A stretch of DNA of 64,000 nt from an uncultured delta proteobacterium (GCA_963737905.1 CAVTUQ010000012.1:1-64000), one strand, 5' to 3'. Positions 21,258 to 49,754 are shown, counted from the stretch's first letter. Program-made: numbers and translations. The notes: generated from the letters alone by a model not told the origin.

Positions 21258-21260
21258 CTC

Positions 21261-22535: not shown

Positions 22536-22556
22536 GGTGTTTCTCCTTTCACTGGG

Positions 22557-25952: not shown

Positions 25953-27250
25953 GCTGAGCCTCCCGCGTTCGCTCTGGCATGAACAATCTTTTTGTGTTCC
26001 AACGATTCGAAAAATGCGTCGATGCGGTTTCTGAGCTGCGCTTCGGAAAAATATCTCGGATCTTCGATATCCGATTCGATCAACAGAGTGGGAACGTTCA
26101 GCTCTTTGGTGAAATATTCGCGCATGTCACCCTGTCCCGCAGAGAACAGTCGACAACTCTTAACGGAATGAATCACCAGAGCGTCGGCATGCCACTCTTC
26201 GACATAGCGGCGGATCTGCTGGTAGCGCTGCAGGAAGTTGCGGTTGGTGACGTTCCATTGGAGCATATGCTGGGCGATCGATTCCAACGGGTGATTGGGA
26301 TCATGCCTGAAGCCGAATTCCCACAAACCGCCGACCGTGGAATAAGTCGAGGCCACCGCCACCGCGCCCCATTTGGAGAAAAGATCTCTAAACGTGCGCA
26401 GGTAGGGCCAGGGCGGTGGTCCTTCGATAACGAAGCGGAAGCGCTCCTCAGGTAACGGCCCCGTTCCCATCCGCACTTTTTCTTCCATCTCTTTAAGGGC
26501 GGTTTCGAAGAATCTCACTCCATCTTCCGTGCCCCTGAGACAGTAGAGTGGCGCCATCATGGTCACCGAGTCGAAGTAGGCGTCAAAGGGAGAAGGAATA
26601 TTCTTGGTCAGCCCTTTGATGCGCGACCACATTTCGCCGGTTTCACTCGAGCGGCTGACGATTTCTTTCAGCCGAGCGTAGTCGAGTTTCTTTCCCGTGA
26701 GCTTTTCGCAGATCTCGATCACCTCTTCGAGCTGGCGCACGACGTAAGTAATGTCCTCCGGGCTCGGCTGTCCGGAAGGGTCGCGCAAGAAAGGGATGTC
26801 GAGGTTGTAGAGTTGCCCATCGCAGTACTCGGCCAAGTGCTCGAACCACTGGAGGTAGACGTTGCAGCCGACGTAGTTACAGAGAATCAGCGACGGCAGT
26901 GGGATGGTCGCGAAAGGAGTTTTGCGGTCGCCGAGAAAGAGGCCGACATCGGCCTTCACATAGGCGCAGTTGTCCATTGAGTAGCCCAACTCCTCGGCCT
27001 TTAGGATAAAGGGCAGGGCGCTCTTCTTAACCGCCAGTTGCAGGGCATCGATCTCCGGATAAACCGGGATCAGATCGAAAGCCTGAATCAGCTCCACCGG
27101 ATTGCCGCTGATCAGCATGTAGACGGCTTTGCCCTCGCCCTTTTCCGCGGCCCGGGTAACCCGCTCGAAGTAGCGCCCCATCATCTCTTTTTGCAGGAGA
27201 TGCATCTGACCCTGGTAGCTTGTCTTCACGGTTTCAGTTGCCTGTGCCAT
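25949..27250 (-). CDS. bcrB: Benzoyl-CoA reductase subunit B (BcrB/BadE, 2-hydroxyacyl-CoA dehydratase family)
   Basis: [44 protein letters not shown]. Confidence 0.85.
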
Positions 27251-27261
27251 CTTTACTCCTT

Positions 27262-27330
27262 GGTCTCTTCGAGTCTCGGGTTTCGATTTGAACACGGGAC
27301 CCGGGACACCAGACACGAGACTCTGGATTC
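27262..27330. repeat. Heptamer-like inverted repeat between bcrC and bcrB
   Basis: TCGAGTC TCGGGTT TCGATTT ... CACGGGA CCCGGGA CACCAGA CACGAGA. Confidence 0.55.
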
Positions 27331-27336
27331 ACGTGT

Positions 27337-28494
27337 TTAGTCAAACAGCATTGACTCCACGAAGGTCTCGACCTCAGTGCGCGCCTTGTCGAAGATCCAC
27401 ATCTTTTCCTCAAATTCGAGGCAGAGGTGAGGAATACCCTCTTTCTCCAACGCCCGTTTATAGAGCGCGTAGTCGAACAGCGCGGGCTCGCAGAATTTCG
27501 CTGCCAGGATCAATACCGCGTCGGCGCCGTTGTCCCTGAATTTGTCAATCAGATGTTTGGATTTAGGCTCGCGCGTGTCGTGTTTCACTCCAGAATAAAC
27601 GCTATGATTGAGGTAAGCGTTGGCGAGGTTACGCATAGGATCGCCTTCAGTCGAAATATCTTCAGAAAACCAGCGCCAACCGATAAGAAAATCGTCATCT
27701 AGAATATAGCAGCCGGCGGATTCGAGTCCGTCGAGCAATTCGATGGGTGGCTGTTCACAGAAAGAGCCTTCTAGAACGACTCTAATTCGGTCCTTGGGCT
27801 TTTCGTTGCGCTGACGCACAGCAGGGATAGCTTCTTCAAGGATGGCGATGTGCTCCTCCGGAGGTAGTAACGTGCCGATGCGCGTCATGACGTAACACTC
27901 GACGGTCGAAAAATTCTGCGGTGTCTCTCTACGGATGGAGTAAAGTTCCCGGAGCAACCGCCGCTGGGTATTGTAAAGCGCTATACTTTGTCTCAGCGCC
28001 TCGTCGGTGATTTTCTTTCCGGACAGTTGCTCATAGCTGGCGTTAAGTCTTTTGTACTCGGAGACCAGGTAATCGATGGTATGGGGTGAAGTCATGTTCT
28101 GCGGAAAGTGAATGTACTCCACCATAAGATCGGGAAAATTCCGCGTGAAGACGCTGGCGAGATTGCGGGCCGGATCACAGATCGAGTGGAAGACGATACC
28201 GTCGAGAAACTTAAGTCTGTCGGTCAGACCCAACTCCAGTGTGCTTTTGACGATAGAACAGACAAAAGATTGAAACCGCGAGTCAGCATGAGCGATCTCC
28301 AGGCGGTTACCGGCGCCAATGACGCCGACGGGCAGCATTCCGGCGGCGTGGATGAGTTCAAACGGAGTATAGACCGGATAGCAACCGACAATCTTGGATT
28401 TTGGATGGTTCTCCTTCCACTCCTTGACTAGATCGAGGGGAGAGTTTTCTAGCGTCTCACGATAACGGGAAATAAGATTTTCGATTGTCGTCAT
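27337..28494 (-). CDS. bcrC: Benzoyl-CoA reductase subunit C (BcrC/BadD)
   Basis: PVYTPFELIHAAGMLP, FQSFVCSI, ICDPARNL, GSFCEQPP, FCEPAL. Confidence 0.85.
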   Translation of the reverse strand: MTTIENLISRYRETLENSPLDLVKEWKENHPKSKIVGCYPVYTPFELIHAAGMLPVGVIGAGNRLEIAHADSRFQSFVCSIVKSTLELGLTDRLKFLDGIVFHSICDPARNLASVFTRNFPDLMVEYIHFPQNMTSPHTIDYLVSEYKRLNASYEQLSGKKITDEALRQSIALYNTQRRLLRELYSIRRETPQNFSTVECYVMTRIGTLLPPEEHIAILEEAIPAVRQRNEKPKDRIRVVLEGSFCEQPPIELLDGLESAGCYILDDDFLIGWRWFSEDISTEGDPMRNLANAYLNHSVYSGVKHDTREPKSKHLIDKFRDNGADAVLILAAKFCEPALFDYALYKRALEKEGIPHLCLEFEEKMWIFDKARTEVETFVESMLFD

Positions 28495-28523
28495 TGACCA
28501 CCGTGATTTCGATTCAGGATTGC

Positions 28524-28538
28524 GCAATATAAGTGCCA
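28524..28538 (-). promoter_or_regulatory. sigma54 promoter for BCR operon
   Basis: TGGCACTTATATTGC (full consensus) 30 bp before ATG 28494. Confidence 0.8.
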
Positions 28539-31985: not shown

Positions 31986-33281
31986 ATGAGTAAGGATACT
32001 TTAACTATAAGGGATAATCGGACCGGCAGAAACTACGAGATTCCCATTCAAAACGGGACGATTCGGTCTACAGATCTGCGCCAGATCAAAACCTCTGAAG
32101 AAGATTTTGGCTTGATGGGTTATGACCCGGCGTTTATGAATACGGCGTCCTGTCAAAGTAAGATTACCTTTGTTGATGGAGAAAAAGGAATCTTGCGGTA
32201 TCGAGGTTATCCTATCGAAGAGTTGGCGGATAAGAGTACTTATCTCGAGACTGCCTACCTGATTCTTTACGGGGAGCTTCCCACCGAGGCGGCGCTGAAA
32301 CAGTGGGCGCATAATATTACTTTTCACACCATCCTCCATGAGAACATCAAAAAGTTCATTGACGGCTTCCATTACGATGCTCATCCCATGGGAATGTTGG
32401 TGAGCACCGTTGCTGCCCTGTCAACCTTCTATCCCGAAGCCAGGAGCATCTTTGATCCCGAATCACAGCGGAAGCAGACCTATCGGCTCATTGGCAAGAT
32501 GCCCACTCTGGCAGCCTTTGCTTACCGGCACAGCCGTGGGATGCCCTACGCCTATCCGGACAATGACTTGAGCTACACCGGGAACTTTCTGAATATGCTC
32601 TTTAAGATGACGGAAGTGAAATATAAGCCCGACCCGATCCTCGAGCATGCCCTGGACGTCCTTTTCATTCTCCATGCTGACCATGAGCAGAACTGCGGTA
32701 CCAATGCCATGCGGAGTGTGGGGAGCTCTCACGTGGATTGCTATTCCGCGGTTGCGGCAGCGGCTGCAGCTCTTTACGGCCCTCTGCACGGCGGGGCGAA
32801 CGAGGAGGTGCTCAGAATGCTCAGGGAGATTGGTTCGAAAAATAAGGTTCCCGAATTCATTAAGAAAGTTAAGGCCGGTGAGGGGCTGCTCATGGGTTTT
32901 GGTCACAGGGTGTATAAAAACTATGATCCTAGGGCGAAGATCATCAAACAGGTGGCTGACCGGGTCTTTGAAGTTACGGGAAGGAATCCGTTACTTGATA
33001 TTGCCCTGGAACTTGAGAGGATTGCCCTGGAGGATGACTATTTTATCAAGCGGAAGCTTTACCCGAATGTCGATTTTTATTCCGGCATTATCTACGAGGC
33101 GATGGGATTTCCGGTGGAGATGTTTCCCGTGCTTTTTGCCATCCCGCGTACCTCCGGGTGGATCGCTCAGTGGCAGGAGATGCTTTCCGATCCCGAGCAA
33201 AAGATAGCACGGCCACGGCAGATCTATTTGGGGCCCGAGAAACGAGTCTATGAAGCGATGGAACAGAGGCGTAGCGATTAG
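31986..33281 (+). CDS. gltA: Citrate synthase
   Basis: LHADHEQN, GPLHGGANE, MGFGHRVYKNYDPRA, YPNVDFYSG. Confidence 0.97.
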   Translation: MSKDTLTIRDNRTGRNYEIPIQNGTIRSTDLRQIKTSEEDFGLMGYDPAFMNTASCQSKITFVDGEKGILRYRGYPIEELADKSTYLETAYLILYGELPTEAALKQWAHNITFHTILHENIKKFIDGFHYDAHPMGMLVSTVAALSTFYPEARSIFDPESQRKQTYRLIGKMPTLAAFAYRHSRGMPYAYPDNDLSYTGNFLNMLFKMTEVKYKPDPILEHALDVLFILHADHEQNCGTNAMRSVGSSHVDCYSAVAAAAAALYGPLHGGANEEVLRMLREIGSKNKVPEFIKKVKAGEGLLMGFGHRVYKNYDPRAKIIKQVADRVFEVTGRNPLLDIALELERIALEDDYFIKRKLYPNVDFYSGIIYEAMGFPVEMFPVLFAIPRTSGWIAQWQEMLSDPEQKIARPRQIYLGPEKRVYEAMEQRRSD

Positions 33282-33529
33282 AAAATTTTCGTCAAAAAGG
33301 CGGCAATAATCCCAGCCAGCAGAGGGAAAAGGATGCTAGCAACCATTCGGATGGTGAAGAGTCTAAACCCCAAAATCGAGAACTCGTAAAAGATGATCCC
33401 GCCACCCCAAAGGGCCCATGACGTTATGTATGTTGTGACGGTTTGAACGCTCCCGCCCGCTTGGTAAAGCGATGCTGCGATGGGAAAACTGATGAAGGGG
33501 CCCCCAAAAGTAAGAGTCCCTGCTAAATA

Positions 33530-35003
33530 GTTTTCACTGAAAAAGTCAGAAAGTTGTTGGGTGTAAATATTGGATTGATGTAAAAGAAGTCATGCGCAAA
33601 GCAATATCTGAGCAGATGAGTTTTGGCGATGGCTTCATCGATCCCAGTTTGTACCGGTTGGATGAGGAGCTCAAGAAAGTGGATGAGCTTCTGAGCCAGG
33701 GCGAGGTGCTCAAGCCCTTCGAAGCACTCTTCGATGATAGCCTGGGCCGGCCCGGCACCCCAGCGGGGATTTACCTGCGGATGATGTATCTCAAGTTTCG
33801 CTGGGGACTGAGCTACGAAGAAGTGGAGACGGAGGTTAAAGAGAGATTGCCTTGGCGCTATTTCTGCCATCTGTCTTTGATGGATACGGTTCCCGACGCC
33901 ACCACGTTGATCAAGCTCAACCAGAGATTTGGCGAGGAGCGGATTGTCAATCTGAACAAGCAGTTGGTCGGCCATTTGGTCAAGCACCGAGCGATCAAAC
34001 CGCGCCGGATTCGCATCGACTCGACGACTCTGGAAGCCCATATCGCTTACCCCACCGACATCAGCATCCTCCATCAAGCAGTGCGCACCCTTACCCGCAC
34101 GGCGAGTTCGTTGGGTCAGAAGATTGTCAGTCATGTGAGAGCCACCAAGAAAGCCTTGGCCCGCTGGGGAGCCAGTTCCAAGGCCAAGCCTAAACAGCGC
34201 AAAGCCCAAGGCAAAAAGATTCTCAAGAAAGTAGCCCAACTGGCCACCGACACGCTGGCCCAGAGCCGTCAAGCTTTCGAGCATCTGTCGACAACGGCGC
34301 CAACCCAGCTCAAGCAGAAGTTTAGCGAAACGATCGAGCTGACCGAAAAGCTGGTTGGGCAAACCCAGGACAAACTGGCGGGAAAGCGTACGATCCCCGA
34401 GCGCATCGTTTCGTTCTTTGATCCTGAGGCCCGGGCCATCGTCAAGGGCAAACTCGACAAGCCGGTGGAGTTTGGTCGCACCCTGCAGTTGCTCCAGGAC
34501 GACTCGGGAGTGATCGTTCACTACGAGATTGAGAGGGGCAATCCTAGCGACAAGACCAAGCTTATTTCTTTGGTCCGCCAGGCCAAAAAAATTCTCAAAC
34601 AAGCGCCCCGAGAATTGGCCACCGACCGCGGTTATTACAGCGCCGACAATGTGAAAAAGCTTAGTCGGCTGGGAGTCCGTAGGGTTGGCATTCCGAAGAT
34701 TGGTCGGTTGAGTAGAGCTGAGAAAAGACATCAACACGCCAAATGGTTCAAAAAGCTGCAACGGTTTCGCTGCGGCATCGAAGCGGGCATTAGTCTGCTC
34801 AAGCGCCGGTTCTCTCTGGGCCGAGTGCTGGCCAAGGGCTCGCCGGCTACCGCCGTATGGACCGGCTTTGCGATCTTTGCTTTCAATCTGTGGCAACAAA
34901 CCTAACATGTGATGAAAACCCAACTCAATGCCGATGACAACTTTCGAGACTCGTAAACACGGCTAATATCCAAATCTTTTAACCGTACTTTTTCAGCGAG
35001 AAC
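33530..35003 (+). mobile_element. Insertion sequence (IS5/ISNCY-like), 1474 bp
   Basis: TIRs GTTTTCACTGAAAAAGT / GTTCTCGCTGAAAAAGT (15 of 17 match); direct repeats TAAATA at 33524-33529 and 35004-35009. Confidence 0.92.
33592..34905 (+). CDS. DDE transposase (IS5/ISNCY-like)
   Basis: VPDATTL, IDSTT...YPTD, KGK..KPVEFG, ATDRGY, RCGIEAGISLLKR. Confidence 0.93.
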   Translation: MRKAISEQMSFGDGFIDPSLYRLDEELKKVDELLSQGEVLKPFEALFDDSLGRPGTPAGIYLRMMYLKFRWGLSYEEVETEVKERLPWRYFCHLSLMDTVPDATTLIKLNQRFGEERIVNLNKQLVGHLVKHRAIKPRRIRIDSTTLEAHIAYPTDISILHQAVRTLTRTASSLGQKIVSHVRATKKALARWGASSKAKPKQRKAQGKKILKKVAQLATDTLAQSRQAFEHLSTTAPTQLKQKFSETIELTEKLVGQTQDKLAGKRTIPERIVSFFDPEARAIVKGKLDKPVEFGRTLQLLQDDSGVIVHYEIERGNPSDKTKLISLVRQAKKILKQAPRELATDRGYYSADNVKKLSRLGVRRVGIPKIGRLSRAEKRHQHAKWFKKLQRFRCGIEAGISLLKRRFSLGRVLAKGSPATAVWTGFAIFAFNLWQQT

Positions 35004-35907
35004 TAAATAGCCAACTACTACCCCTTTGAGCCCTGACTCTTCTCCGAGCCACTTTCGTACCACATCCTCAGGCATGAGGACGCGAACATAACCTGCTATC
35101 AAGAAGGCACCTACCAGCGTCGGCAGAACAAGCAAGAGCGTCTTACTCGCTTCAGTGATCCCCAATATGTGGCGTTGTTCGCCCTTGAGATAAGCGGCTA
35201 CAGCAAGAGCCAGCGCAATAGCATACACTATGATGTTAAGTGTCCTCATCTTAAAATGGAAGCCTCCTTTAACATTGTTCTTATCACGAACCGCTCCCCC
35301 ATATCGCCCTCATTCGACCTGGTCGCATCCGACTGAAGGATAGAATTGGAGACACTAAAACTATTCTTTCATGGGAGAGGGATTACGTGTCACGCACTTA
35401 ATTATCTAATTCGGGCCAGGCAGATTCCGAAGACGATCTGGTTCTGAACTCATCTATTCACACAAGATCAGGTGTCACGTATCTAATTTATCTATTGCCG
35501 ACGGGCTCAGCGAAGAGCCTAAGAAATTTTAAAGCGCCAGAAGAAATGAAACGACCATCAGAAACGATACGGTCGTCCCTTTTAGCTTCACCATTATCTG
35601 GCAGTCAATTGAACGGACGCGTCAGTGCAATGAGCCGAAACGTGTAGAGCAGGTTAAGACTGTAAAGGGGCGGATACCAGAGTAATTCCATAACTGCGAA
35701 CACGTTTCTAAAATTTACAAACGTTTAACCACTGGTCTGCCTATGTTAGCAAGTCGGCGCCTAGAGCTAGTCAAACTTATTATTTAGAACGCGCTGCCAC
35801 GAAAGGGTGGGGTCGTTAAAATTCCTAACCTTGCGAGAAATTCATGCGTCTGTTTGCAGAAATAAGAAAAAAACCGGCCTTTGGGTCAAAAAGCGTGGTG
35901 TATTTCG

Positions 35908-35922
35908 TGGCATAACCATTGC
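35908..35922 (+). promoter_or_regulatory. sigma54 promoter for cupredoxin-like genes
   Basis: TGGCATAACCATTGC; implies a very short leader to ATG 35940. Confidence 0.6.
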
Positions 35923-35939
35923 TCGCTTGTAAGGATGCC

Positions 35940-36674
35940 ATGAACACAAAAACAATACATCAACTCTGTGTGGGAATCTCTTTCATCGTTTTGTTCTCGT
36001 CTGCCTCAGCGGCTTACGAGGAGATCGCAGTAAACAACGGCGCCACGATTCAGGGCACCGTCAAGTTTGAAGGCAAGCTTCCCAAGCTGCCGCCTTTGCA
36101 GATTACCAAGTCCAAGGAAGTTTGCAGGAATGTGCCCAATGAAACTCTGATCGTCGGAGCGGGACAGGGTATTCGCTATGCCGTTGTGACCTTAGAAGGG
36201 ATCACGAAAGGGGTGGCCGTAGAAAAAGAGGCGGTCCATGAGCTGGATAATTTGGGATGTCGCTTCGTTCCCCACGTATTGGCCTCAAGTGTCGGGCAGT
36301 TCGTGGTGTTCAAAAACTCAGATCCAATCCTACATACGGCGCATGCTCTGTTCACCAGCGGGCAGCCGCAATTCAATGTCGGGCTTTATCCAGGCAAGGT
36401 CAGCCGCAAACCGTTGGTTACTCCCGGTGTGGTCAAGATCATTTGTGAAGTCCACCCCTGGATGAGCGCTTATATTGTCGTCACCGATCATCCCTACTAT
36501 TCGGTGACGGATGTCTATGGAGAATATCTCATCAGTGACATTCCCGCCGGGAGCTATCGGTTGAAAGTGTGGCACGAGACTTTGGGCACCGAAGAAAAAC
36601 AGGTCGAGGTGAAGGCCGGCGGTTCTCAGAATGTGGATTTTGTCTTGAGTCCAAAACCAGGAGTAAAAAAATGA
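35940..36674 (+). CDS. Exported cupredoxin-like/carboxypeptidase-regulatory-like domain protein
   Basis: Signal peptide; NSDPILH...CEVHPWM putative type-1 Cu ligands. Confidence 0.8.
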   Translation: MNTKTIHQLCVGISFIVLFSSASAAYEEIAVNNGATIQGTVKFEGKLPKLPPLQITKSKEVCRNVPNETLIVGAGQGIRYAVVTLEGITKGVAVEKEAVHELDNLGCRFVPHVLASSVGQFVVFKNSDPILHTAHALFTSGQPQFNVGLYPGKVSRKPLVTPGVVKIICEVHPWMSAYIVVTDHPYYSVTDVYGEYLISDIPAGSYRLKVWHETLGTEEKQVEVKAGGSQNVDFVLSPKPGVKK

Positions 36675-37300
36675 CCCTACGACACGTCCGGCTATTTGCG
36701 CTTGTGCCGCTCTTGCTCGCCGCCCAAGTACAGGGCGCCGAGGTAGCGATAAAGAGCGGAATCATCAAAGGAACGATTACCGTGGCGGGAAAGCCGACGT
36801 CGGATGTGGTGGTTTCGTTGGAGGGTATCCCGGCAGAAACCGCCAAAGCCCAAATCTCGGCGGCCAAACCGAAAAAGGCGGTAATAGACCAGAGGGAAAT
36901 GAAATTTATTCCTCACGTTTTGCCCGTGCTGGTCGGTACCACCGTTGAATTTCCAAATCACGATACCGCCTGGCACAACGTCTACTCGAAAGGCGGAGCC
37001 AAAGATTTTGATCTCGGTCTTTACCCACCGGGAAAAACCGGGAGCACTACGTTTGACAAACCCGGAGTGGCCAGAATCCTGTGCAATGCCCATCCTAATA
37101 TGGAGGCTTTCATCGTCGTGAAAGAGCATCCCTTTTTCTCCAGCGCCGACAAAGGAGGCAACTATCGACTGGATGGAGTGCCGCTGGGCAAGTATCGCAT
37201 TCAAGTCTGGCATCCGGAGCTCGGGACCACTGAGACGGGAGTCGAACTGGTTCGTGCGGGAGAGGTGTTCGACGTTAATTTCGATCTGAAAAAGAAATAG
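36671..37300 (+). CDS. Exported cupredoxin-like protein
   Basis: Signal peptide; FPNHDTAWHNVYS...CNAHPNM; ATGA overlap with upstream gene. Confidence 0.8.
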   Translation: MTLRHVRLFALVPLLLAAQVQGAEVAIKSGIIKGTITVAGKPTSDVVVSLEGIPAETAKAQISAAKPKKAVIDQREMKFIPHVLPVLVGTTVEFPNHDTAWHNVYSKGGAKDFDLGLYPPGKTGSTTFDKPGVARILCNAHPNMEAFIVVKEHPFFSSADKGGNYRLDGVPLGKYRIQVWHPELGTTETGVELVRAGEVFDVNFDLKKK

Positions 37301-37343
37301 CAAAGCAAGGTTCGACTGCAGCGAACCAAGAAAGCGCACAAAG

Positions 37344-37712
37344 ATGCGACGAAAAGAAGAGGTGCTTAAGAGTCAAAGCGAATGCGTTACCGCTCGCGTA
37401 ATGGAAACGGAAGATAACGTAATAGCCCTGAAAAACCTCACAGGTAAGCTTACCGGAGCGGAAAAGCGAGTATTGGCTCTGGTTTCTGCAGCCAAAACTA
37501 ATAAAGAGATAGCACTCGCTCTATACATCAGCCCCGCCACCGTCAAGCGCCATCTGGAAAACGTTCTTAGAAAGCTTGCGCTGAAAAACCGCGTCGAAGC
37601 GGCGATCTACGGCCTCATCGCCAATGGATGTCCTAATGGATCAAGTTCCGGTTGTCCTTTGGAGCTGTGGCGAAAAGCCAAACACGATGCCGACGCAAAA
37701 TGGGCCGTTTGA
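37344..37712 (+). CDS. LuxR-family HTH-only regulator
   Basis: LT..EKRVL...TNKEIA..LYISPATVKRHLENVLRKL; C-terminal CP....CP. Confidence 0.85.
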   Translation: MRRKEEVLKSQSECVTARVMETEDNVIALKNLTGKLTGAEKRVLALVSAAKTNKEIALALYISPATVKRHLENVLRKLALKNRVEAAIYGLIANGCPNGSSSGCPLELWRKAKHDADAKWAV

Positions 37713-37745
37713 CCCATAGACGGCTTAACTGCGCAGTGCTATAAA
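37700..37745 (+). promoter_or_regulatory. Possible operator palindrome and sigma70-like promoter for mtrA
   Basis: ATGGG-N8-CCCAT palindrome abutting TAGACG-N17-TATAAA. Confidence 0.35.
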
Positions 37746-37808
37746 CCAGAACAAAACCGGTACTCCCACGTAGAAGCACGTTTCACAGCAGGAGGGCGTG
37801 GAGGAAAC

Positions 37809-38760
37809 ATGAAGCGCTGTGTGGCCCTGTGTTCGTTCTGCGTTTTATCGTTGTTGGTTTCCTTCGAGTCGTCTGGTCCGCGGAATCCGAAGCCACCCAA
37901 GCAAGCTCCCGCAACCTACGTCGGCAATGAAGTTTGCCAAGCTTGCCACGCGCCTGCCTTTGAAAAATTTACCCAGACGATGATGGGGAAAATTTTCTTG
38001 TTCAACCCGCGCAATGAGGCCGAGAAGCGGGCCTGTGAGTCATGCCATGGACCGGGTAGTAACCACGTCGCAGCTGGTGGCGGCAAAGGCGTCGGTGGAC
38101 TTATAACTTTTCGCAAAGACTCTGGAGAGTCCGCCGCAGGTCCAGAACGGCGCTTGTCTTGGATGCCATCAGCGCGGCATTCAGACCTATTGGGAGGCAG
38201 GTCCCCACGCCAGCCGCGGGCTGACTTGCGTTACCTGCCATCAGGTGATGGAGAGGACGACCGACAAGTATCAGCTCGCGAAGGTTGGTGAGAAGACGCC
38301 TTTCTTTAACAAGCGGGCGGAAATCGAAGTTTGCGGTCAATGTCATCTGCAAAGAAAAGCCCAGCTCATGCGCTCCTCGCATATGCCCTTGCGCGAAGGC
38401 AAGCTAACTTGTACCGACTGCCACAATCCGCATGGCACCCCCAATCCTTCCCAGCTCAAACAAACCAGCGTCAATGAAAACTGTTACACCTGCCATACCG
38501 AGCGCCGCGGGCCGTTTTTGTGGGAGCATCCGCCGGCGTTTGAGAACTGTAGCAACTGTCACGAGCCTCACGGAACCATCAATGACCGGCTTCTCAAAGT
38601 CACCGACCCGAGGCTCTGCACCTCGTGCCATAACGCAACGCGTCACCCCGTGACGCCGCGGCCGCCGACCTCGGTCTTTTTCTTTAACCGAAGCTGTACC
38701 AACTGTCACAGTCAAGTCCATGGATCGAATCATCCTTCGGGGAAATTCTTTCAGAGATGA
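37809..38760 (+). CDS. mtrA: Decaheme cytochrome c, MtrA/DmsE/PioA/MtoA family (frameshift near 38135)
   Basis: 10 CxxCH across two frames (CQACH, CESCH, CLGCH, CVTCH, CGQCH, CTDCH, CYTCH, CSNCH, CTSCH, CTNCH); RGPFLWEH, HGSNHPSG. Confidence 0.9.
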
Positions 38761-38771
38761 GGAGGCCGGAC

Positions 38772-41075
38772 ATGAAACAGACCCAGATCTGTTTTGTTAG
38801 TGGTACGACCCTGGTCCTCTTTTTGTTTCTGATCTCGCCGGCGTGGGGACAGATCAACGTCGGGGACTATACCATTAGTGGCGGCGGAGAGATCGGCGGT
38901 CTGCCGCGGGGTTTTAAGGGGGACTTGTCCTCGTTTGAACAATATCGGGATATTCCCGAGAGCGTTATTGTGCCGCAACTGCAACTGATGATCGGAGGAA
39001 AAAAGGAAGATTATTATCTCTATGCCGATTCCTACAAGACCGGACTGAGCGACCAGAGCTATACGCTTCGCGTCGGCAGATATGGGCTCTTGGATATGGA
39101 ATTCCAGTGGGATCAAATTCCGCACTGGTTCGACGGCAAGTTCGCCCGGACCCCTTATAGCGAGAGGGACGGAGTTTTCACTCTTTCCTCCAAGCCGACA
39201 GCAACCACGGCAACGACTGTTTGCGCCACTTCCCCTACATGCCAGTGGTTAAACACCACTGCGCAACCGATAAATCTCAGCCTCTATAACGGCATTGCGC
39301 GGGTCAAGGTCCGCTACACGCCTCAGCCGGGATGGAACTTTACCGCGGGTTATTGGCAAAATCATAACGTTGGAGACCGAGCGTTTGGAACTCTCTTCGG
39401 CAGCAGTCCTGGCTCGTACAATATTACCGAACTCGCCGAACCGATCAATTACCAGACTTATAATATCGAACTGGGCGGAGAGTATGCAGCGAACGGATGG
39501 TCCGTCGGTTTGAAATACAACGGATCGATTTTCAACAATCTCACTAGTAACATCGTCTGGGACAACCCGATGAACCTAACGGGTGTAGGGGCGGCATGCC
39601 AGGACTCCGCAACCTCTGAATTATAACACCGGCACTGGGAGCCTGCCGCGGTCGGATGGATCTCTATCCAAATAATCACGCCCACACGGTGACCTTATCA
39701 GGGGCAGCGGCGCTTCCGCTTAAGACCAACTTTATGGGGACGGCCTCTTATGGTTGGAGACTCCAGGATGCTTCCTTCCTGCCGTTTACCATTAACAGTT
39801 GCTACGGCTCGGGCCCGAAACCGGCCTCCTGCAGAGACGCCGCTCTGACACCCTTGCCGACGATCTCCAAAAACAGCCTCTCTGGCGACATTCGCCCGCT
39901 CATGGTTAATGCCACCCTGGTGAACAACTTCTTCGAAGGCGTTACCCTGAAGTCCTTTTATCGCTACTATGGCCTGAGCAACCACAGCAGCCAGGTCGAT
40001 TTACCGCAAGGGTATATCGTTCTCGATACCGGAGCACCGCACAGGGGCGGCGCTAGAAAACCCGCTTTATTCGTATGCGAAGAATAGCGTCGGCTTCGAG
40101 GGGAGCTACAATTTCTTCCGTTGGCTGTCGGCCAAGTGGAGCTATGGTTACGACAGAATGCATCGACATGATCGCGAGACCTTCAACGCGGACGAATATG
40201 GCGTGGGACCGACCTTCGATATCAAGCCGATTCCCGAGCTTTTATTCAGGGCTTCTTACAGACATTTGTGGCGCAACATTTCTGCATATAACGCGCTCCC
40301 GGAAGCCGATGCCGCCAATATTTCGCGAAAATACGACGAGGCGGCGCGTCGCCGGAACAAAACCAGTCTTTTCGCTCAGTATACGCCGCTGGATAACTTA
40401 GAATTGCATTGGGGTTTTGACTTGACCACCGATCGTTATCTCTATGCCACCGTGGGAGCTCAAAACGATAATAACTACTCGCCCTCTGTCGGTTTTGTTT
40501 ACACGCCGCTCCAATGGCTCAGAGTCTTTGCGGATTACAATTGGGATCGCACTGATTGGAAGATGGATGTGCAGGACCGGACGTCTCTCACTCAGACACC
40601 CGCGACCAATTGTTTTCCTGCGGTCCCCATTAACCAAAATCAGTGTTGGACCAGCCGGGGAAAGGACTTTGCCAACACCATCAGCTTTGGCAGCGATGTG
40701 GATATTATCCCGAATCTTTTTGGATTTCGCCTGCAGTACACGTTTTCTAACGGTCACAGTATAGTTTCGGCCAGCGGTGACCAGCAAAGTACCACCCCAG
40801 CCGGTAATTATCCGATTATCAAAAATCAGTGGTATGAGTTGCTGGCGCGCTTTGAATACAAATTGCAGGAAAATTTAGCCCTGCGATTCGGCTATTATTA
40901 TAACCACGCGACCGAGCAGGATTTTGGCGTCGATATCATGAAGCAATGGATGGGTGATGTGGACGTCGTCCCCACGCCCAATGCTAATGTCGCAAGGTCG
41001 GCGTTTTTGGGTGATCGCATCAAGGGACCGTTTACCGCCAACGTTGGATTCGTAACTCTGGGGTTTAAGTTTTAA
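38772..41075 (+). CDS. mtrB: Outer-membrane beta-barrel, MtrB/PioB family (frameshifts near 39620 and 40045)
   Basis: Signal peptide, FEQYRD, ELAEPINY, WDNP, YPNN, RKYDEAARRR, terminal Phe; follows decaheme gene. Confidence 0.87.
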
Positions 41076-41237
41076 GAACCTTCCAGCAGTAAAAATGGTT
41101 CAGGACAATCGATGCGGGCAGTTTCTTAGCTTGGCCCTTGGTCGAAACCGCGGAGCGAGGCTTTCTTGGCCACAATTGAAATCTGACGAAGTAGCTCTTC
41201 TCATGGCTTTTTTTGAGCGATCAACGCGGAGCGAACG

Positions 41238-42494
41238 GTGAAGGTCGACAGAGTGATTGTTTTTGCGGCCCTGGTTTTTCTGACTCTAGCCATAGCCGGC
41301 GTTCTGCAGGCTCAACCGCAAGGAGAAACTTGCGCGGTTTGCCATACGGCACTTGGCGTGGACAATTTGACGAAGCCGGTTGAATTGTACAAGGCGGACA
41401 TCCATGCGCCGAAAGGATTTGGCTGTGTCGCCTGTCACGGTGGGGATGGTACCAAGATGGGATTGGAAGCAATGGATCGGGCGAAGGGATACATCGGTAA
41501 GCCCACACCAACTCAAGTCATCGAGGTATGCGGCCGTTGCCACTCCGACGCGCGCTTCATGAGACAATACAATCCCTCTCTTCGGGTCGATCAGGTTACG
41601 GAATATTACACTTCGGTTCACGGCAGGCGGCTCAAAGAGCTCAAAGACCCGAAGGTTGCGACCTGCGCTAGTTGTCACATACCTCACTCGATAAGGCCGC
41701 CTAGCGATGCGCGATCGTCGGTTTATCCGCTGCGCGTTGCGGATACTTGTGGGTCATGTCATGCCAATGCCGAATACATGGCGCCCTACAAGATTCCCAC
41801 TGACCAACTCGCGAAGTACAAAAAGAGCATTCATTGGAAGCTGATGACGAGTAAAGGAGACCTGTCGGCGCCCACCTGCAATGACTGTCACGGTAATCAC
41901 GGCGCCGCGCCTCCCGGCATCTCATGGGTCGGGAATGTCTGCGGCCAGTGTCACCCCGTCAACGCAGAGCTCTTTAGCAAGAGTCGGCACGGGCAGCTCT
42001 TTGTTCAGATGGGAATTCCGGGGTGCGCCACCTGCCACAGTAATCATGAGATACTCGAAACCAGTGATGCGATGCTCGGCGTCGACGATAAAGCCATCTG
42101 TGGAAATTGCCATACGCCGCAGGATACGGGTGGTAAAACAGCGGTCGCTATGCGGCAATCCATCGAAAGGCTCAGGACAGATTATGAGGCTGCGCATGCC
42201 ACCCTGGCGAAGGCGGAAAATGCCGGCATGGAAGTCAGCCAACCTCTCTTTGAGCTAAACGGAGCCAAGACGGCTCTTGTGAAGGCCCGCGCATCGATTC
42301 ACGGTTTTAATTTGGATAGCGTGAATGCTGAGGTTAAGCAGGGTTTGGAAATCAGTGACAAAGCGCGCGCACGGGGGGTAAGGGCGCTCGACGAGCTTCA
42401 GTTTCGCCGCAAAGGATTGGCAGTTTCAGTTCTGATCATTCTGGCTTTGATCATTGGACTAGTCCTGAAAATACGCCAGATGGAAAGAAAATGA
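41238..42494 (+). CDS. Nine-heme cytochrome c with C-terminal membrane anchor
   Basis: 9 CxxCH; signal peptide; C-terminal LAVSVLIILALIIGLVL helix. Confidence 0.92.
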   Translation: MKVDRVIVFAALVFLTLAIAGVLQAQPQGETCAVCHTALGVDNLTKPVELYKADIHAPKGFGCVACHGGDGTKMGLEAMDRAKGYIGKPTPTQVIEVCGRCHSDARFMRQYNPSLRVDQVTEYYTSVHGRRLKELKDPKVATCASCHIPHSIRPPSDARSSVYPLRVADTCGSCHANAEYMAPYKIPTDQLAKYKKSIHWKLMTSKGDLSAPTCNDCHGNHGAAPPGISWVGNVCGQCHPVNAELFSKSRHGQLFVQMGIPGCATCHSNHEILETSDAMLGVDDKAICGNCHTPQDTGGKTAVAMRQSIERLRTDYEAAHATLAKAENAGMEVSQPLFELNGAKTALVKARASIHGFNLDSVNAEVKQGLEISDKARARGVRALDELQFRRKGLAVSVLIILALIIGLVLKIRQMERK

Positions 42495-42534
42495 TAGGAG
42501 AATGAAACAAAACGTAGGCGGCATCCCGAGTGTT

Positions 42535-42590
42535 GTCATTTCGACCGAAGGGAGAAATCTAGATCCCTCACATCCGTTCGGGATGACACC
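42535..42590. repeat. REP-like element
   Basis: TGTCATTTCGACCGAAGGGAGAAATC...CGTTCGGGATGACA. Confidence 0.55.
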
Positions 42591-42644
42591 GAATGTGAGG
42601 AAAACAGCGGTTCTCACCTACGGTAGACGCGAACCAAAATAATT

Positions 42645-43107
42645 ATGGCTAAAGAACAAACATTTCTCACACACGATCCGAGCCGAAGGAATTTTCTCAA
42701 TTGGTTCCTCGGCACCACTGCCGGCGCGTTTGCCATCTCGGTTCTTTACCCGATAAGCCGTTACCTTATTCCGCCACAAGGCCGAAGAGTCTTCCGCCCA
42801 ACGTGATGCTTGCCATCAAGCCGCCAAGATATCAAACCCAACAGCGGGCAAATTGTTCGCTTCGGCAGCCAGCCTGCGATTTTGATCGATACACCAGCCG
42901 GCGAGTTAAAGGCTTTTTCTGCGACCATGCACTCATCTTGGCTGTATCGTTCAATACCGGCCGGATCTCAGCGAAATATGGTGCGCCTGTCATAACGGCC
43001 ATTTCAATTTGAACGGTAAAAATGTCGCAGGACCGCCGCCGAAGCCATTGGAAGAGTACACCGTGAATGTCAGAAGCGATCAAATCGTCGTGAGCAAAAG
43101 GGGCTAA
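42645..43107 (+). CDS. Rieske 2Fe-2S protein (frameshifted)
   Basis: Tat signal SRRNFL; CTHLGC and CACHNGHF boxes; GPPPKPL. Confidence 0.88.
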
Positions 43108-43109
43108 GC

Positions 43110-44208
43110 ATGGAAGACCAAAGCCCAAAGTACGGTAAATTGTGGCACTGGCTCGATGAAAGAATCGGGCTGGAGGATATCGAATATCTCGCCAAGAAGA
43201 AAGAAGTGCCGGTGCACGGTCACACGTTTTGGTATTATTTCGGCGGGATGACGTTGTTTCTCTTTATGATTCAGGTTACCACCGGCATCCTTCTTTTGCT
43301 CTATTATCGACCCAGTGCCGGCGAGGCCTACGAGTCCATCCAGTTTCTGATGACGGAGGTACAGTTCGGCTGGCTGGTCAGATCGATTCACGCTTGGTCG
43401 GCTAATCTGATGGTCTTTGCCATGTTCATCCATCTCTTCAGTGCCCTGCTGGGCAAGGCCTATCGCGCACCGCGCGAATTGACCTGGCTCTCGGGTGGCG
43501 TACTGCTAGGCTTAACTCTCGCCTTCGGGTTTACCGGATATCTCTTGCCGTGGAATGAACTCTCTTTCTTTGCCACAAGAGTGGGTACTGAAATACCCGG
43601 TGTCATTCCGGTCATCGGATCCTTCCTTCGCCGGTTGCTGCGCGGTGGGGACGATGTGACCGGAGCAACGTTGACGCGTTTTTATGGCATTCATGTGGCG
43701 GTGCTGCCGGCGATTGTCACGGTCGTGCTGGGTCTGCATCTGTTCCTCGTGCAGAAACATGGTATGAGTACTCCGCCAGGCGAGGAACAGGAGGGCAAGG
43801 GCAGGCGCACGATGCCTTTCTTTCCAAACTTTTTCCTCCGCGATCTGGTCGGTTGGCTTTGTGCGCTCGGCGTACTTGCTGCTCTGGCCGCCTATTTCCC
43901 GGCAGAACTAGGTAAAAAAGCGGATCCATTTCACCCCGCGCCGATCGGGATCAAGCCGGAGTGGTATTTCATGGCCATGTTTCAAACCCTAAAACTCTTG
44001 CCCAGTTATATTCTAGGTATCGAGGGGGAGCTTCTCGGTGTTCTTGCATTCGGTGTGGTCGGCTTGGTGCTGATTCTCATACCCTTTCCTCGACCGACGT
44101 ACAGCCTCAGGGCAGCCGAGCCGCCTTCCTGCGGCTTTCGGCATCACGCTTATCTTGTACATGGTCTTGTTGACTTACCTCGGATATACCATGAGTCCGA
44201 CAAAATAA
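43110..44208 (+). CDS. Cytochrome b (b6 + subunit IV fused); frameshift near 44085
   Basis: [37 protein letters not shown] Qo motif. Confidence 0.92.
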
Positions 44209-44260
44209 TCCGCATGGTTTTTGAAGTCGAAACGTTTCGCATATTGAAGAGAACCTCCAT

Positions 44261-45070
44261 ATGGCGCGATTTCGCATCATAGCGCTTAGCGATCGTTGTT
44301 CTAGTGGTCGTGGGAATCGGCTTTGCTGGCTATCGCAGTTACCAATACGTCGAGCATGATCCCCAATTTTGCGCCTCATGTCATTTGATGGCCACGGCAT
44401 GGACTACCTGGAAGCAAGGTCCTCACAACAAGCTCGATTGTCATGTTTGCCATCAACAGAATATTCAAGATCGCGTTCGTATTGTCTGGAGCTGGGCGAT
44501 TTCAGATATCAAAAAATGTTCCGCCGCATACCAGGCTCAACAGAAGGGTTTGCGAAGACTGTCATCTGAACGACAAGACGAATTGGCCGCAGATCAGTAA
44601 AACCGCCGGCCATGAGCTTCATGTCAAGAGAGCTAATTTAGAATGCCTGTCATGCCATTTGCCGTCTTTACATGCTGTGAAACCAACCACCAAAGAATGT
44701 GTTACATGTCACTCCAAGGCCACTGCCAATATCGGCGGGATGAAGGCATTCCATTGCACAACTTGCCATCAGTTTACGGCTAAGATCGGCACGGCCTAAA
44801 GCCCGAAGAGCGAGACATGTTGGGTTGTCACAGCGGAATGTCGTTAAAGGGAGAGACATTTCCGGCTCAAGCGCCAATGCGGTTCGGTTGTGCGACTGCC
44901 ATAAACCCCACAGCCGGCCCTTATTGACTTTCTCCGATTGTCTGGCGTGTCACCCGCAGATTACAGAAGATCGCCGCCATTTCGACCAAAAAGCGTTGAC
45001 GAGGTGTGTTAGTTGTCATAAACCCCATAGTTGGAAAGCTGTCACAGAATCCACAGTGAAAAAAAGTTAA
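44261..45070 (+). CDS. Membrane-anchored multiheme cytochrome c (NapC/NirT-like N-terminus, about 10 hemes), frameshifted
   Basis: N-terminal TM, FCASCH, CHVCH, CEDCH, CLSCH, CVTCH, CTTCH, CLACH, CVSCH plus two motifs broken by indels. Confidence 0.8.
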
Positions 45071-45089
45071 GTCGAAGGGAGAAATAACG

Positions 45090-45423
45090 ATGGATAGAAA
45101 AATAGTCAGGTGCCATTTTGGGACTCTGGATCGCATGGTCCTGGACGGGTGCAGCCTTGGCGGCGGATGCGAGCGCGGGAAAGGCCATCTTTGAAAAATC
45201 CTGTGTTAGCTGTCACGGCAAGGATGGCAAAGGCAATCCGGCCATGGCCAAGGTCTTAGGGGAAAAGGGATTAGATCTCACAGGCAAGGAAGCGACCCAA
45301 AAATCTGATGAGCAGCTCCTCAAAGTAATTGCCGAGGGAGCGGGAAAAATGCCGGCCCAAAAAACGCTCAGTAAGGACGATCAAAAGCAGGTTTTGAGCT
45401 ACGTGCGGTCCTTAGCGAAGTAA
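45090..45423 (+). CDS. Monoheme class I cytochrome c (frameshift in signal peptide)
   Basis: GKAIFEKSCVSCHG...GKMPA. Confidence 0.85.
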
Positions 45424-45488
45424 ATGAGTCATGTCTTCCGGTGGCAAGTGCTGCAGCGAGCAATATCGCAGCGACCGTGCGGGAACGA

Positions 45489-45740
45489 TTAGAACTTAAG
45501 CTGGTGGGGCTGGGCATGGGTTAGAAGAAAAATGGCGATTACGTCGCTGAGATCGGGACGGCTGATTTCTTCCAGGTCGTAACCTACCCGACAGTGTGGC
45601 CTTCGGTCCCCGGGGATCTGAGCTGCGATGAACGCTACAACTTCGTATTCGGGATTGTCACGGAAGCAGACATTGAATGTGTGAAAGTCCCTACCGGCCG
45701 CGCCCATAATGAGCACTCGCTCCCGGTTGGATACGTGTCT
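45489..45740 (-). pseudogene. Internally deleted GTPase/cyclic 2,3-diphosphoglycerate synthetase-like gene
   Basis: Family N-terminus RVLIMGAAGRDFH..RDNPEYEVVAF..QIP joined to C-terminal-like RVGYDLEEISRPDL. Confidence 0.7.
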
Positions 45741-45917
45741 GCTATCCCGTTAAAATTCGTTAGACACGTCTGCCATCATCGGTCTCCCCCCGGTGCCTAT
45801 GTTTCAAGATTTAACCGCATAGAACACATAGATCACAGAAATATTGATGGGCGACGGCGGCTCAATGCAATCGATCCTAAGGCCTTGCGTTCTTTACGGT
45901 TTCCTCTCTCTAAATCA

Positions 45918-45932
45918 GCAAGATATGTGCCC
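45918..45932 (-). promoter_or_regulatory. sigma54 promoter (to GTPase remnant)
   Basis: GGGCACATATCTTGC on minus strand. Confidence 0.6.
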
Positions 45933-46090
45933 CTGATCTAGTGCGACTAAATTCTCAATAACGTGATCTTGAAAACTGGCCATATTCTTCGCAGCTTTGC
46001 GATTCGAACCGCTTTATATTCTCACGAATGGGAATTATCCTTGATCAAAATTACTACGGTACCAAAAAGATCCTTTTGGCTCAACTGTCG

Positions 46091-46105
46091 TGGCACAGAG
46101 TGTGC
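46091..46105 (+). promoter_or_regulatory. sigma54 promoter for glucan phosphorylase
   Basis: TGGCACAGAGTGTGC followed by AGGAG RBS and ATG 46132. Confidence 0.6.
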
Positions 46106-48733: not shown

Positions 48734-48786
48734 TGCTCTAACTTCTGAGAGAAGCATTCTGCCAGTGAGTCGGAGAGGAGCGATCC

Positions 48787-49754
48787 ATGTCTACAGAAGT
48801 TAGAACCGAAATATCACCGATCCAACGGAGACAAGAGCTGATAGAAAAATACTGGGCGGGGGATATGGCCCGCAAAGTCTATCTAGTGCGACATCAACGC
48901 AAGGCGATTTTGGCACACTGCCGGCGCATCGCCGTAATCGGCGCAAGCGGTGATCCCGATAGCGAGAGCTATGTCAGTATGGAAAAACTGTTAGGACTGG
49001 GCCTTGAGATCATCCCAATTTTTTCAGGCCGTGAAAGTTTTCTGGGGCTGCGCTGCTACTCTCGTTTGCGCGATGTGCCCGGCAAGATCGATATCGTGCA
49101 AGTTTATCCCGGCGGGCGGATAAATTTAGCTAGAGCTGGCTCAGGAGGCAGTCGACAAGGGTGTGTCCACCTTCTGGATTGAAAAGGGAATGGCGGCTTC
49201 CACGAGAGGTCGAGGACATCCTTTCCAACGGTAAAGTTCAGTTGGTGGAGTACGAGAGCTTGGAATCGGAGTATTTGAAACATACTCCCATGATCCCGAG
49301 CGCGGTGCCGGTCCGCAAGGAAAAGAAGACGGTGAAGGTCAAGGAGCGGATGACCAGAAATCCTACCGCGGTCACACCCGAGGAGGCTCTCAAGGATGCC
49401 GTATGCAAGATGGAGCGCGGCCATTTCCGCCATCTGCCGGTGGTCGATAACGATGGGAAATTGATCGGCATGCTTTCTGACCGCGATATCCGCCTGATTC
49501 GCCCCTCTCTGGCATTCGTCGGCAAGGAAGACGCCGGGGTTCAGCTCTGGTCCCTCGCCGTGCAGCAAGCTGCGGTCTTCGATCCGATTTCGGTGAAGCC
49601 GGAAACAACCCTCAAGGAAGCGGCTGAGCTGATGCTGCGCTGGCACGTGGGTGGTCTCCCGGTCGTTGATAATGAAGATAAACTCATTGGCATTATTACC
49701 TATACCGATTTGTTACGAGATTCTGTTGGATCTCAGCAAAGTGATCGTCCGTGA
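48787..49754 (+). CDS. CoA-binding (YccU-like) + CBS-pair fusion, frameshifted near 49130-49190
   Basis: RRIAVIGAS, CYSRLRDVPGKIDIV; then FRHLPVV...SDRDI, VGGLPVV...TYTDLL. Confidence 0.72.

Follow-up and report, generated by a model that had tools for sequence, protein, structure and literature searches.

A cluster of ten genes in an uncultured, soil-type, Binatia-like bacterium could connect the cell's surface with the quinone pool of its membrane. The cluster lies at positions 35940-45423 of a 64-kb stretch of DNA (GCA_963737905.1, CAVTUQ010000012.1:1-64000; the whole of this stretch is called the window below), and places an outer-membrane conduit of the MtrAB type beside a nonahaem cytochrome (c9), a Rieske iron-sulfur protein and a cytochrome b. 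That the cluster is respiratory, and joins the outer surface to the quinone pool in this Binatia-like bacterium, is a reading which we regard as evenly balanced. The c9-Rieske-cytochrome b triad is a fixed, widespread module, and mtrA and mtrB recur beside it in several arrangements. The copy in the window is either badly assembled or decaying.

The step by which electrons pass between an outer-membrane conduit and the quinone pool is poorly known beyond Shewanella and Geobacter, as is whether energy is conserved there. If a Rieske/cytochrome b complex were indeed dedicated to MtrAB, it would make mineral oxidation or reduction proton-motive, or driven by the proton-motive force. The lineages concerned (Binatia, Methylomirabilota, Acidobacteriota) are abundant and uncultured. 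The idea has been published since 2013; the window contributes a compact form of it and a cupredoxin pair, and our survey adds evidence that the nonahaem-Rieske-cytochrome b triad is fixed and widespread.

An earlier note on this DNA had listed ten genes, and open reading frame (ORF) calls together with Pfam and NCBIfam matches recovered every one of them where the note had placed it (Table 1). All are co-oriented on the + strand, and the substantial coding signal in 35940-45423 is wholly on that strand. Among the related loci, which are numbered with the prefix L, L005 is an intact orthologous operon holding cupredoxin 1, cupredoxin 2, luxR, mtrA (331 amino acids, 10 haems), mtrB (786 amino acids), c9, the Rieske gene (153 amino acids) and the cytochrome b gene (366 amino acids), and L033 supplies orthologues of the last two genes, encoding a decahaem (c10) and a monohaem cytochrome. 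The broken window copy is of limited direct use, and these intact loci are better starting points.

The c9-Rieske-cytochrome b module

A scan of one genome per species (species-representative genomes) gave at least 599 pattern matches, at least 584 of them confirmed as encoding a relative, and the synteny counts given here rest on the best 80 of these confirmed stretches. The related loci carry the labels Binatia, 'delta proteobacterium' metagenome-assembled genomes (MAGs), Rokubacteria/Methylomirabilota/NC10, Acidobacteriota and Gemmatimonadota. Of the 59 loci that extend 3 kb or more downstream, 58 have the Rieske and cytochrome b genes after c9 at a fixed distance; L030, in which they are not both found, has no cytochrome b match. 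Relatives of c9 are numerous (7956 proteins with E<=0.001 among 8000 candidates scored), and the 120 matches listed are 70-93% identical to it, the named ones being mainly Candidatus Binatia. Two of the triad loci (L052 and L060) are on contigs of one MAG, M3-38_Bin_144, so some genomes may hold two copies.

The earlier note had proposed that a multihaem cytochrome serves as the c subunit of the Rieske/cytochrome b complex. This proposal gains from the constant position of c9 beside the other two genes, from its C-terminal helix and, weakly, from complex prediction. In L005 the hydrophobic segment 417-444 of c9 forms the C-terminal helix, and a signal-like segment is present at the N-terminus; cytochrome c1 is likewise anchored by a C-terminal membrane helix. 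None of the locus genes matches a cytochrome c1 family in Pfam or NCBIfam, and the nonahaem c9 occupies that position, so that the complex departs from the canonical bc1 type with its monohaem cytochrome c1. Prediction of cytochrome b together with c9 gave a score of 0.56, the best control reaching 0.00, which amounts to weak support; at least 95% of contacts are common to the runs, and the predicted local distance difference test score (pLDDT) of the partners is at least 84. In calibration, 116 of 157 solved complexes attained the mark, as did 2 of 215 mismatches, while just 18 of the 157 had scores of 0.60 or below, and because custom alignments were used for the prediction this calibration is approximate. 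A profile search for solved structures related to c9 gave a single marginal match (6i5b_A, E=4.6e-05). We regard c9 as a candidate c subunit of the Rieske/cytochrome b complex, in place of cytochrome c1. Literature searches, which were not aimed at c9 and reached their sources in part, turned up no description of it as a family.

Both cluster-binding boxes of a Rieske protein (CxHxxC and CxCH) are present in the window, as CTHLGC and CACHNGHF, and the latter recurs in 64 of 76 relatives. The L005 protein matches the NCBIfam models of both b6f and bc1 Rieske proteins. In bc1 complexes Ser and Tyr raise the potential of the Rieske cluster. The protein here is without them, which suggests a low-potential centre and would fit an easily reversible complex.

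In cytochrome b the residues H94, H108, H195 and H210 are invariant in 30 sequences, and from their spacing we take them to be the haem ligands. The motif K/RPEWYF is found in 65 of 65 sequences, and the closest solved chains are those of cytochrome b6. In cytochromes of the b6f and Firmicute b6c type, a Cys near the N-terminus (CxGG) binds haem ci, as described in the available text of Dibrova et al. (2017; PMC5600118). At the place of this site the window and its relatives have WYYFGG, with W41, Y42, Y43, G45 and G46 invariant and no Cys, so the protein falls outside the b6f/b6c type. The same source, as far as its text is available, mentions a cytochrome b clade in 'large conserved operons' of unknown function (Dibrova et al., 2017).

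The MtrAB conduit

The MtrA-like gene of the window carries its CXXCH motifs in two frames (2 + 8), and its pieces are 82-84% identical to the intact L005 protein. Against the TIGR03508 model of the DmsE/MtrA family (cut-off 192.2) the L005 protein scores 248.9 bits, above the cut-off, and the C-terminal piece from the window scores 180.1 bits alone. Members of this family have ten haems and about 300-330 amino acids, and the 10 CXXCH of the window and the 331 amino acids of L005 agree with this description. The L005 protein also matches the solved chain 6r2q_A (E=1.2e-60); we take 6r2q to be the Shewanella MtrCAB structure, the molecule name tabulated for the entry being odd. The start of mtrB overlaps the stop of mtrA. 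The three pieces of MtrB reach 101.2, 53.1 and 98.6 bits against PF11854 (cut-off 23), cover profile positions 5-610 of 635, and are co-linear with the L005 protein, which scores 220.1 bits on TIGR03509, under the stricter cut-off of that model (240.05).

The conduit appears to be without a surface partner. More than one CXXCH motif occurs in no ORF of the 64-kb window outside the locus genes, which means that no MtrC/OmcA-like gene is present there, as the earlier note had maintained. An MtrC/OmcA-type partner of the kind found in Shewanella MtrCAB is thus absent from the window, and matches to PF22113 and TIGR03507 are weak, sub-threshold and lie inside MtrA and c9.

In some of the related loci a pentahaem cytochrome gene stands beside mtrA or mtrB, and a protein with an ethylbenzene-dehydrogenase-type (EB_dh) domain is also encoded (L006, 5097-6200; L009, 5019-6128 and 3582-4946; L019, 7317-8663). 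The pentahaem cytochrome has a weak match to MtrC/MtrF domain II/IV, at 31.7 bits in L009 (cut-off 30). The window has neither of these proteins.

Association of the module with mtrAB

The earlier note had allowed that the bc genes might never be syntenic with mtrAB, and had otherwise taken the triad to be mtrAB's own complex. The survey answers both points. In 14 of the 80 related loci mtrA or mtrB lies within 10 kb of the triad, in several arrangements, which makes the link recurrent and not universal; the triad itself is a widespread module, mostly with no mtrAB nearby, and to call it mtrAB's own complex therefore goes too far. As a whole, the interpretation in the earlier note is partly supported.

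Upstream of the triad, mtrB is found within 6.5 kb in 6 of the 51 loci that have such a flank (L005, L006, L007, L009, L018 and L019), most of which also hold both cupredoxins and luxR. It is found at about -10 kb in L002, L015 and L016, and anywhere upstream in 9 of 43 loci. Downstream, mtrA or mtrB is found in 3 of 41 loci, and in five in all (L020, L024, L036, L037 and L045), at 4-10 kb. Where 9.9 kb are available on both sides, 11 of 31 loci have an mtrA or mtrB gene. When the mtrAB label is mapped onto the c9 tree, its upstream form takes 4 changes and its downstream form likewise 4 (at least 3 forced by well-supported branches). The gene pair is nearby in 0 of 34 Gemmatimonadota rows of this tree, compared with 15 of 45 rows of the other clade. 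The window falls inside a 12-row Binatia-type clade (Shimodaira-Hasegawa-like approximate likelihood ratio test, SH-aLRT, 99).

Several observations weigh against a dedicated wire from the outer membrane to the quinone pool. Most loci have the triad with no mtrAB within 10 kb, so that it may be a general complex III. The gaps of 162 nucleotides between mtrB and c9 and of 150 nucleotides between c9 and the Rieske gene leave room for separate promoters. A scan of 35300-46100 for promoters and terminators found 10 promoter-like and 12 terminator-like sites, with no excess over shuffled sequences (means 8.0 and 11.4), and is therefore uninformative on co-transcription.

In an alternative reading the triad is an ordinary complex III that is a mere neighbour of mtrAB in a respiratory island. 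MtrAB would then be linked to quinone by c10, as an analogue of CymA/ImoA, or would have no such link, and the copper proteins and cytochrome c would hand the electrons directly to an oxidase. The many loci in which the triad stands without mtrAB, including all 34 Gemmatimonadota rows, are as expected for an ordinary complex III, and in L002 and L016 a module like alternative complex III (ACIII) and other cytochromes lie between mtrB and c9, as a respiratory island would have them. The occurrence of mtrAB beside the triad in three arrangements and under several phylum labels (Binatia, Acidobacteriota, Methylomirabilota) tells against this, and points to more than one inherited accident.

The N-terminus of c10 bears on the other half of this alternative. 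In the window the open frames of c10 have 2 + 4 + 2 CXXCH motifs; following the frames raises the count to 9, and a further motif is interrupted by a 1-bp deletion. In L033 the orthologue (272 amino acids, 10 CXXCH) has a hydrophobic segment at 1-30 with CASCH directly after it, and scores 52.8 bits over residues 10-69 on the TIGR03153 NrfH model, below the cut-off of 134.2; a piece of the window protein scores 19 bits on PF03264, below 24.1. The earlier note was right to call c10 an anchored cytochrome of about ten haems, and overlooked this NrfH/NapC-like start, which places a CymA-like candidate quinone link in the locus as well. Against such a role, c10 and the monohaem gene follow cytochrome b in L001, L013, L014 and L033 only, of the 80 loci, and none of these four shows mtrAB, so that c10 is not the general partner of mtrAB. 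Taken as a whole, this alternative seems to us doubtful.

The boldest form of our reading goes further than a dedicated wire. The triad would be a class of bc complex that is undescribed and yet very widespread among phyla of soil and sediment, with a low-potential Rieske centre. In Binatia, Methylomirabilota and some Acidobacteriota it would repeatedly have been recruited to join MtrAB to the quinone pool through a reversible, energy-coupled step, the periplasmic carriers being a dedicated blue-copper pair. We put this forward very tentatively and consider it improbable. If true, it would amount to extracellular electron exchange coupled to a Q cycle, a form outside the Shewanella and Geobacter models.

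L002 and L016 belong to the closest relatives of Binatia type, and their stretches between mtrB and c9 (L002, 2101-7200; L016, 2207-7214) hold an ACIII-like set (pentahaem cytochrome c, molybdopterin-type subunit, 4Fe-4S subunit and NrfD) and two tetrahaem class-I cytochromes. Two more cytochromes come after cytochrome b in L002, one with 11 haems and a fused b561-type domain, the other NapC-like with 12 haems.

Frameshifts in the window copy

The frameshifts suspected by the earlier note proved to be real features of the given sequence. Breaks were mapped with tblastn and nucleotide alignment to intact orthologues, from L005 for mtrA, mtrB, c9, Rieske and cytochrome b and from L033 for c10 and the monohaem gene, and two shifts at gene starts (c10 at ~44285 and the monohaem gene at ~45105) were added by direct reading. 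This gave 13 indels within 38134-45105, about 7 kb, in mtrA, mtrB, the Rieske gene, cytochrome b, c10 and the monohaem gene (Table 1); c9, both cupredoxins and luxR have none. All are of 1-2 bp or small, and the majority are single-base insertions outside long homopolymers.

Some explanations can be set aside. The first contexts seen were adjacent to homopolymers, but alignment to orthologues places just the indel at 44511 in a six-A run. Conserved recoding or programmed frameshifting does not fit, as the indels of L009 are at other positions and 78 of the 80 loci read through. The shifts do not reach the gene directly upstream (33281-35309, - strand), in which a 479-amino-acid frame matches a 469-amino-acid protein over 97% of its length.

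If the locus were a decaying pseudogene cluster, then MtrAB, the Rieske protein, cytochrome b, c10 and the monohaem cytochrome would no longer be made. The clustering of 13 indels in 7 kb is extreme, while about 40 kb of genes elsewhere show full-length Pfam coverage and the directly upstream gene is whole. Uniform sequencing error would not yield such clustering; decay of one operon would. The position of most indels away from long homopolymers means, in addition, that the classic homopolymer error of long reads fails to explain them. The same operon-restricted pattern is repeated in an independent MAG (L009, 6583-12846), where insertion-type indels are limited to mtrA, mtrB, Rieske and cytochrome b, with c9 and the flanks intact and with long unbroken flanking ORFs.

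Other features of the indels tell against decay. The window locus has no nonsense substitutions and no large deletions, and private changes at otherwise-invariant columns show no excess, with 0 of 117 in cytochrome b (n=65) and 0 of 83 in c9 (n=79); the Rieske protein has 4, of which 3 are in the out-of-frame stretch between compensating indels. Decay of bacterial genes is biased to deletions, whereas the bias here is to 1-bp insertions. The block of indels begins inside mtrA and ends inside the last gene, and so is not operon-wide, and c9, the cupredoxins and luxR are untouched. Apart from L009, with several shifts, and L053, with one, the genes are unbroken in the 80 related loci, and the indels of L009 are again of the insertion type, at positions of their own. 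We consider decay unlikely, and think that the indels are probably consensus errors of the assembly, in which case the organism probably has a working locus. A conceivable cause of the clustering is that a conserved operon of co-occurring populations was poorly resolved in a long-read metagenome assembly. The clustering shared by the window and L009 fits no explanation so far.

Outside the locus the window has two plausible breaks, near 49150 and near 56900, and a weaker candidate near 50600; homologues of the flanking genes are few in the related loci. At 48769-49751 (+ strand) a CoA_binding_2 domain breaks off at position 62 of the 116 in its profile, and a CBS-pair ORF comes next in another frame; at 56509-57936 (+ strand) an MgtC domain breaks off at 42 of 121, with a DUF4010 ORF after it; and at ~50600 a PaaA_PaaC match covers profile positions 5-227 of 263.

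Table 1. Genes of the locus, with the indels mapped in each (positions in the window)
Gene product	Position	Strand	Features	Indels	Location of indels
Cupredoxin 1	35940-36674	+	signal peptide; predicted type-1 copper cupredoxin domain; C-terminal CarboxypepD_reg (Ig-like)	0	
Cupredoxin 2, paralogue of cupredoxin 1	36671-37300	+	CarboxypepD_reg; Copper-bind PF00127 above cut-off	0	
LuxR/GerE helix-turn-helix protein, 122 amino acids	37344-37712	+	PF00196, E=1e-15	0	
MtrA-like decahaem cytochrome (DmsE family)	37809-38760	+	10 CXXCH in two frames; broken near 38134	1	~38134, 1-bp insertion
MtrB/PioB-type outer-membrane porin	38757-41075	+	three frames, each piece above the PF11854 cut-off	2	~39617, ~40042-40072
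Nonahaem cytochrome c9	41238-42494	+	intact; 9 CXXCH; N-terminal signal, C-terminal membrane helix	0	
Rieske iron-sulfur protein, twin-arginine N-terminus	42645-43107	+	CTHLGC and CACHNGHF; orthologues 153 amino acids	4	+1 at 42776, -2 at 42799, +1 at 42824, +1 at 42927
Cytochrome b, b6 plus subunit-IV-like in one chain	43110-44208	+	PF00033 179.6 bits; KPEWYF; orthologues 366 amino acids	1	~44089, 1-bp insertion; shifts last ~40 codons
Decahaem c10, N-terminal membrane helix, NrfH/NapC-like start	44261-45070	+	orthologue with 10 CXXCH	4	~44285, 44511, ~44786, 44891 (44891 within a CXXCH)
Monohaem class-I cytochrome c, signal peptide	45090-45423	+	PF13442 and PF00034	1	~45105

Proposed electron path and its direction

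In the path that we propose, MtrB would form an outer-membrane sheath around the decahaem MtrA, and the two would carry electrons over the outer membrane. The periplasmic carriers would be the two blue-copper proteins and the monohaem cytochrome c. At the inner membrane the Rieske/cytochrome b complex, with c9 replacing cytochrome c1, would exchange electrons with (mena)quinone, and the NapC/NrfH-like c10 may likewise exchange electrons with the quinone pool. We favour inward flow, from donors outside the cell (Fe(II), reduced minerals or humics, for example). Electrons leaving MtrA would then reach an oxidase by way of the copper proteins and cytochrome c, and a share of them would be driven uphill into the quinone pool by the bc module or c10.

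The cupredoxins form part of this argument. Cupredoxin 2 is 37% identical to cupredoxin 1, and scores 28 bits against PF00127 (cut-off 21.2) with a weak match to amicyanin. The AlphaFold2 model of cupredoxin 1 has a pLDDT of 93.2, and a Foldseek search with it gave a probability of 1.00 to amicyanin, pseudoazurin and plastocyanin, with further matches to CuA domains and to AcoP. Residues H132, C169, H172 and M175 are invariant in 43 sequences, and this set of His, Cys, His and Met is presumably a type-1 copper site. The predicted fold and these putative ligands together correspond to a type-1 (blue) copper cupredoxin. The family of cupredoxin 1 is large, with 354 representatives at E<=1e-30.

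Blue-copper proteins of known families have high potentials and are poor donors to MtrA-type haems. Inward flow is favoured because the copper potentials would be too high to feed such haems, because no surface MtrC is present, and because there is a precedent in Zixibacteria RBG-1, where the published interpretation of a similar cluster, in the available text, leans to oxidation (Castelle et al., 2013). The cupredoxins and the missing MtrC favour electron uptake or oxidation, with the potentials of haems and copper assumed here from other families.

The same three points argue against an outward wire, in which the Rieske/cytochrome b-c9 complex would oxidise quinol with proton-motive gain and MtrAB would export the electrons to acceptors of high potential, for example Mn(IV) or chelated Fe(III). 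Quinol oxidation is, in favour of this, the normal role of a Q-cycle complex, and the ext cluster of Geobacter, a metal reducer, has the same order of multihaem cytochrome, Rieske protein and cytochrome b. The window also encodes catabolism of an anaerobic type that would want an electron sink, with benzoyl-CoA-reductase-like and beta-oxidation genes and a formate dehydrogenase. We think outward flow rather unlikely, and inward flow remains the direction that we favour.

Other genes of the locus and its flanks

Cupredoxin 1 has an alternative TTG start at 35919, and the start of cupredoxin 2 overlaps its stop by 4 nucleotides. Literature searches, which were not aimed at the cupredoxin pair and reached their sources in part, turned up no description of it. 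The LuxR-type gene encodes a small regulator without a receiver domain, and its position is conserved in L005, L006, L007, L009 and L019. The monohaem cytochrome c is 72% identical to its L033 orthologue.

On the - strand at 19648-28527 is a catabolic block of the anaerobic aromatic type, with two BcrAD/BadFG ATPases and two HGD-D subunits of the benzoyl-CoA-reductase or 2-hydroxyacyl-CoA-dehydratase type, as well as enoyl-CoA hydratases, short-chain dehydrogenases and an amidohydrolase; acyl-CoA dehydrogenases are nearby. An 889-amino-acid formate-dehydrogenase-like molybdopterin enzyme with N-terminal 2Fe-2S and Nqo3-like 4Fe-4S domains is encoded at 11487-15450 (- strand), and its gene adjoins those of a formate/nitrite transporter and a monohaem cytochrome c. 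The gene at 6048-9566 (- strand) encodes a P-type cation ATPase of 1172 amino acids with an N-terminal PTS_EIIA_2-like domain, an unusual fusion of which L009 has a homologue.

Comparison with known systems

The architecture is not new. As the available texts make clear, it is already in print for Zixibacteria RBG-1 and for Methylomirabilis oxyfera (Castelle et al., 2013; PMC3903129), and also in the ext cluster of Geobacter (PMC5877670).

Besides MtrA and MtrB, the RBG-1 cluster, as described in the available text, contains PetAB, two monohaem cytochromes and a number of multihaem ones; an extracellular cytochrome is absent, and the authors proposed Fe(II) oxidation (Castelle et al., 2013; PMC3903129). 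A supplementary legend places the closest homologues in Methylomirabilis oxyfera, in a similar cluster (PMC3903129). On this description RBG-1 shares with the window an MtrA-like decahaem cytochrome and MtrB-like porin clustered with PetAB and with mono- and multihaem cytochromes, and the lack of MtrC/OmcA. It differs in that MtrA/B (RBG1_768/769) and PetB/A (RBG1_780/781) are about ten genes apart, whereas the window has c9 alone between them, and neither the two cupredoxins nor the LuxR gene nor the NapC-like decahaem of the window is named in the available description. A Zixibacteria-labelled homologue with 73% identity is among the c9 matches listed. A literature search for MtoA, MtrA or MtrB in Binatia, outside which most subscription journals lay, found in the accessible texts no description of the cluster in that group.

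In Geobacter sulfurreducens the extHIJKLMNOPQS cluster (GSU2930-2940) encodes, according to the available text, a porin and 12-haem and 10-haem cytochromes, followed by the Rieske protein ExtO and the cytochrome b ExtP (PMC5877670), and so resembles the window in having a porin, multihaem cytochromes, a Rieske protein and a cytochrome b in one cluster. In contrast to the window, its porin ExtI is not of the MtrB/PioB type, it contains rhodanese and selenoprotein genes, and ExtP is a short cytochrome b of 23 kDa with a separate ExtQ, where the window has one 366-amino-acid chain (PMC5877670, as far as available). On the NF040969 model of ExtP (cut-off 290) the cytochrome b of the window scores 211.5 bits and that of L005 207.3, both short of membership.

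Among Fe(II) oxidisers, MtoAB-MtoD-CymA(ImoA) of Sideroxydans/Gallionella and PioABC of Rhodopseudomonas palustris use an MtrAB-type conduit without MtrC, and PioAB homologues occur in Rokubacteria and Acidobacteria (PMC10654088, available text). With these systems the window would share an MtrC-less conduit, a periplasmic carrier and a membrane-bound, quinone-reactive cytochrome. It differs in that no homologue of the high-potential iron-sulfur protein (HiPIP) PioC or of MtoD is among the Pfam and NCBIfam matches of the locus, which come from no search aimed at them. In the window the carrier role would fall instead to cupredoxins and a class-I cytochrome c, and the cluster includes a Rieske/cytochrome b complex.

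In Acidithiobacillus ferrooxidans the bc complex of the pet operon is thought to run in reverse, according to the available part of one account (PMC10654088). The rus/petI system of this bacterium resembles the window in concept, in that electrons enter at the outer membrane and the further parts include a blue-copper carrier, c-type cytochromes and a bc complex, and its cupredoxin AcoP is the one found among the fold matches of cupredoxin 1. It differs in being that of an acidophile, in having Cyc2 instead of MtrAB and in the normal cytochrome c1 of its bc1 complex. The likeness is one of analogy, the homology shown extending to the cupredoxin and bc folds and no further.

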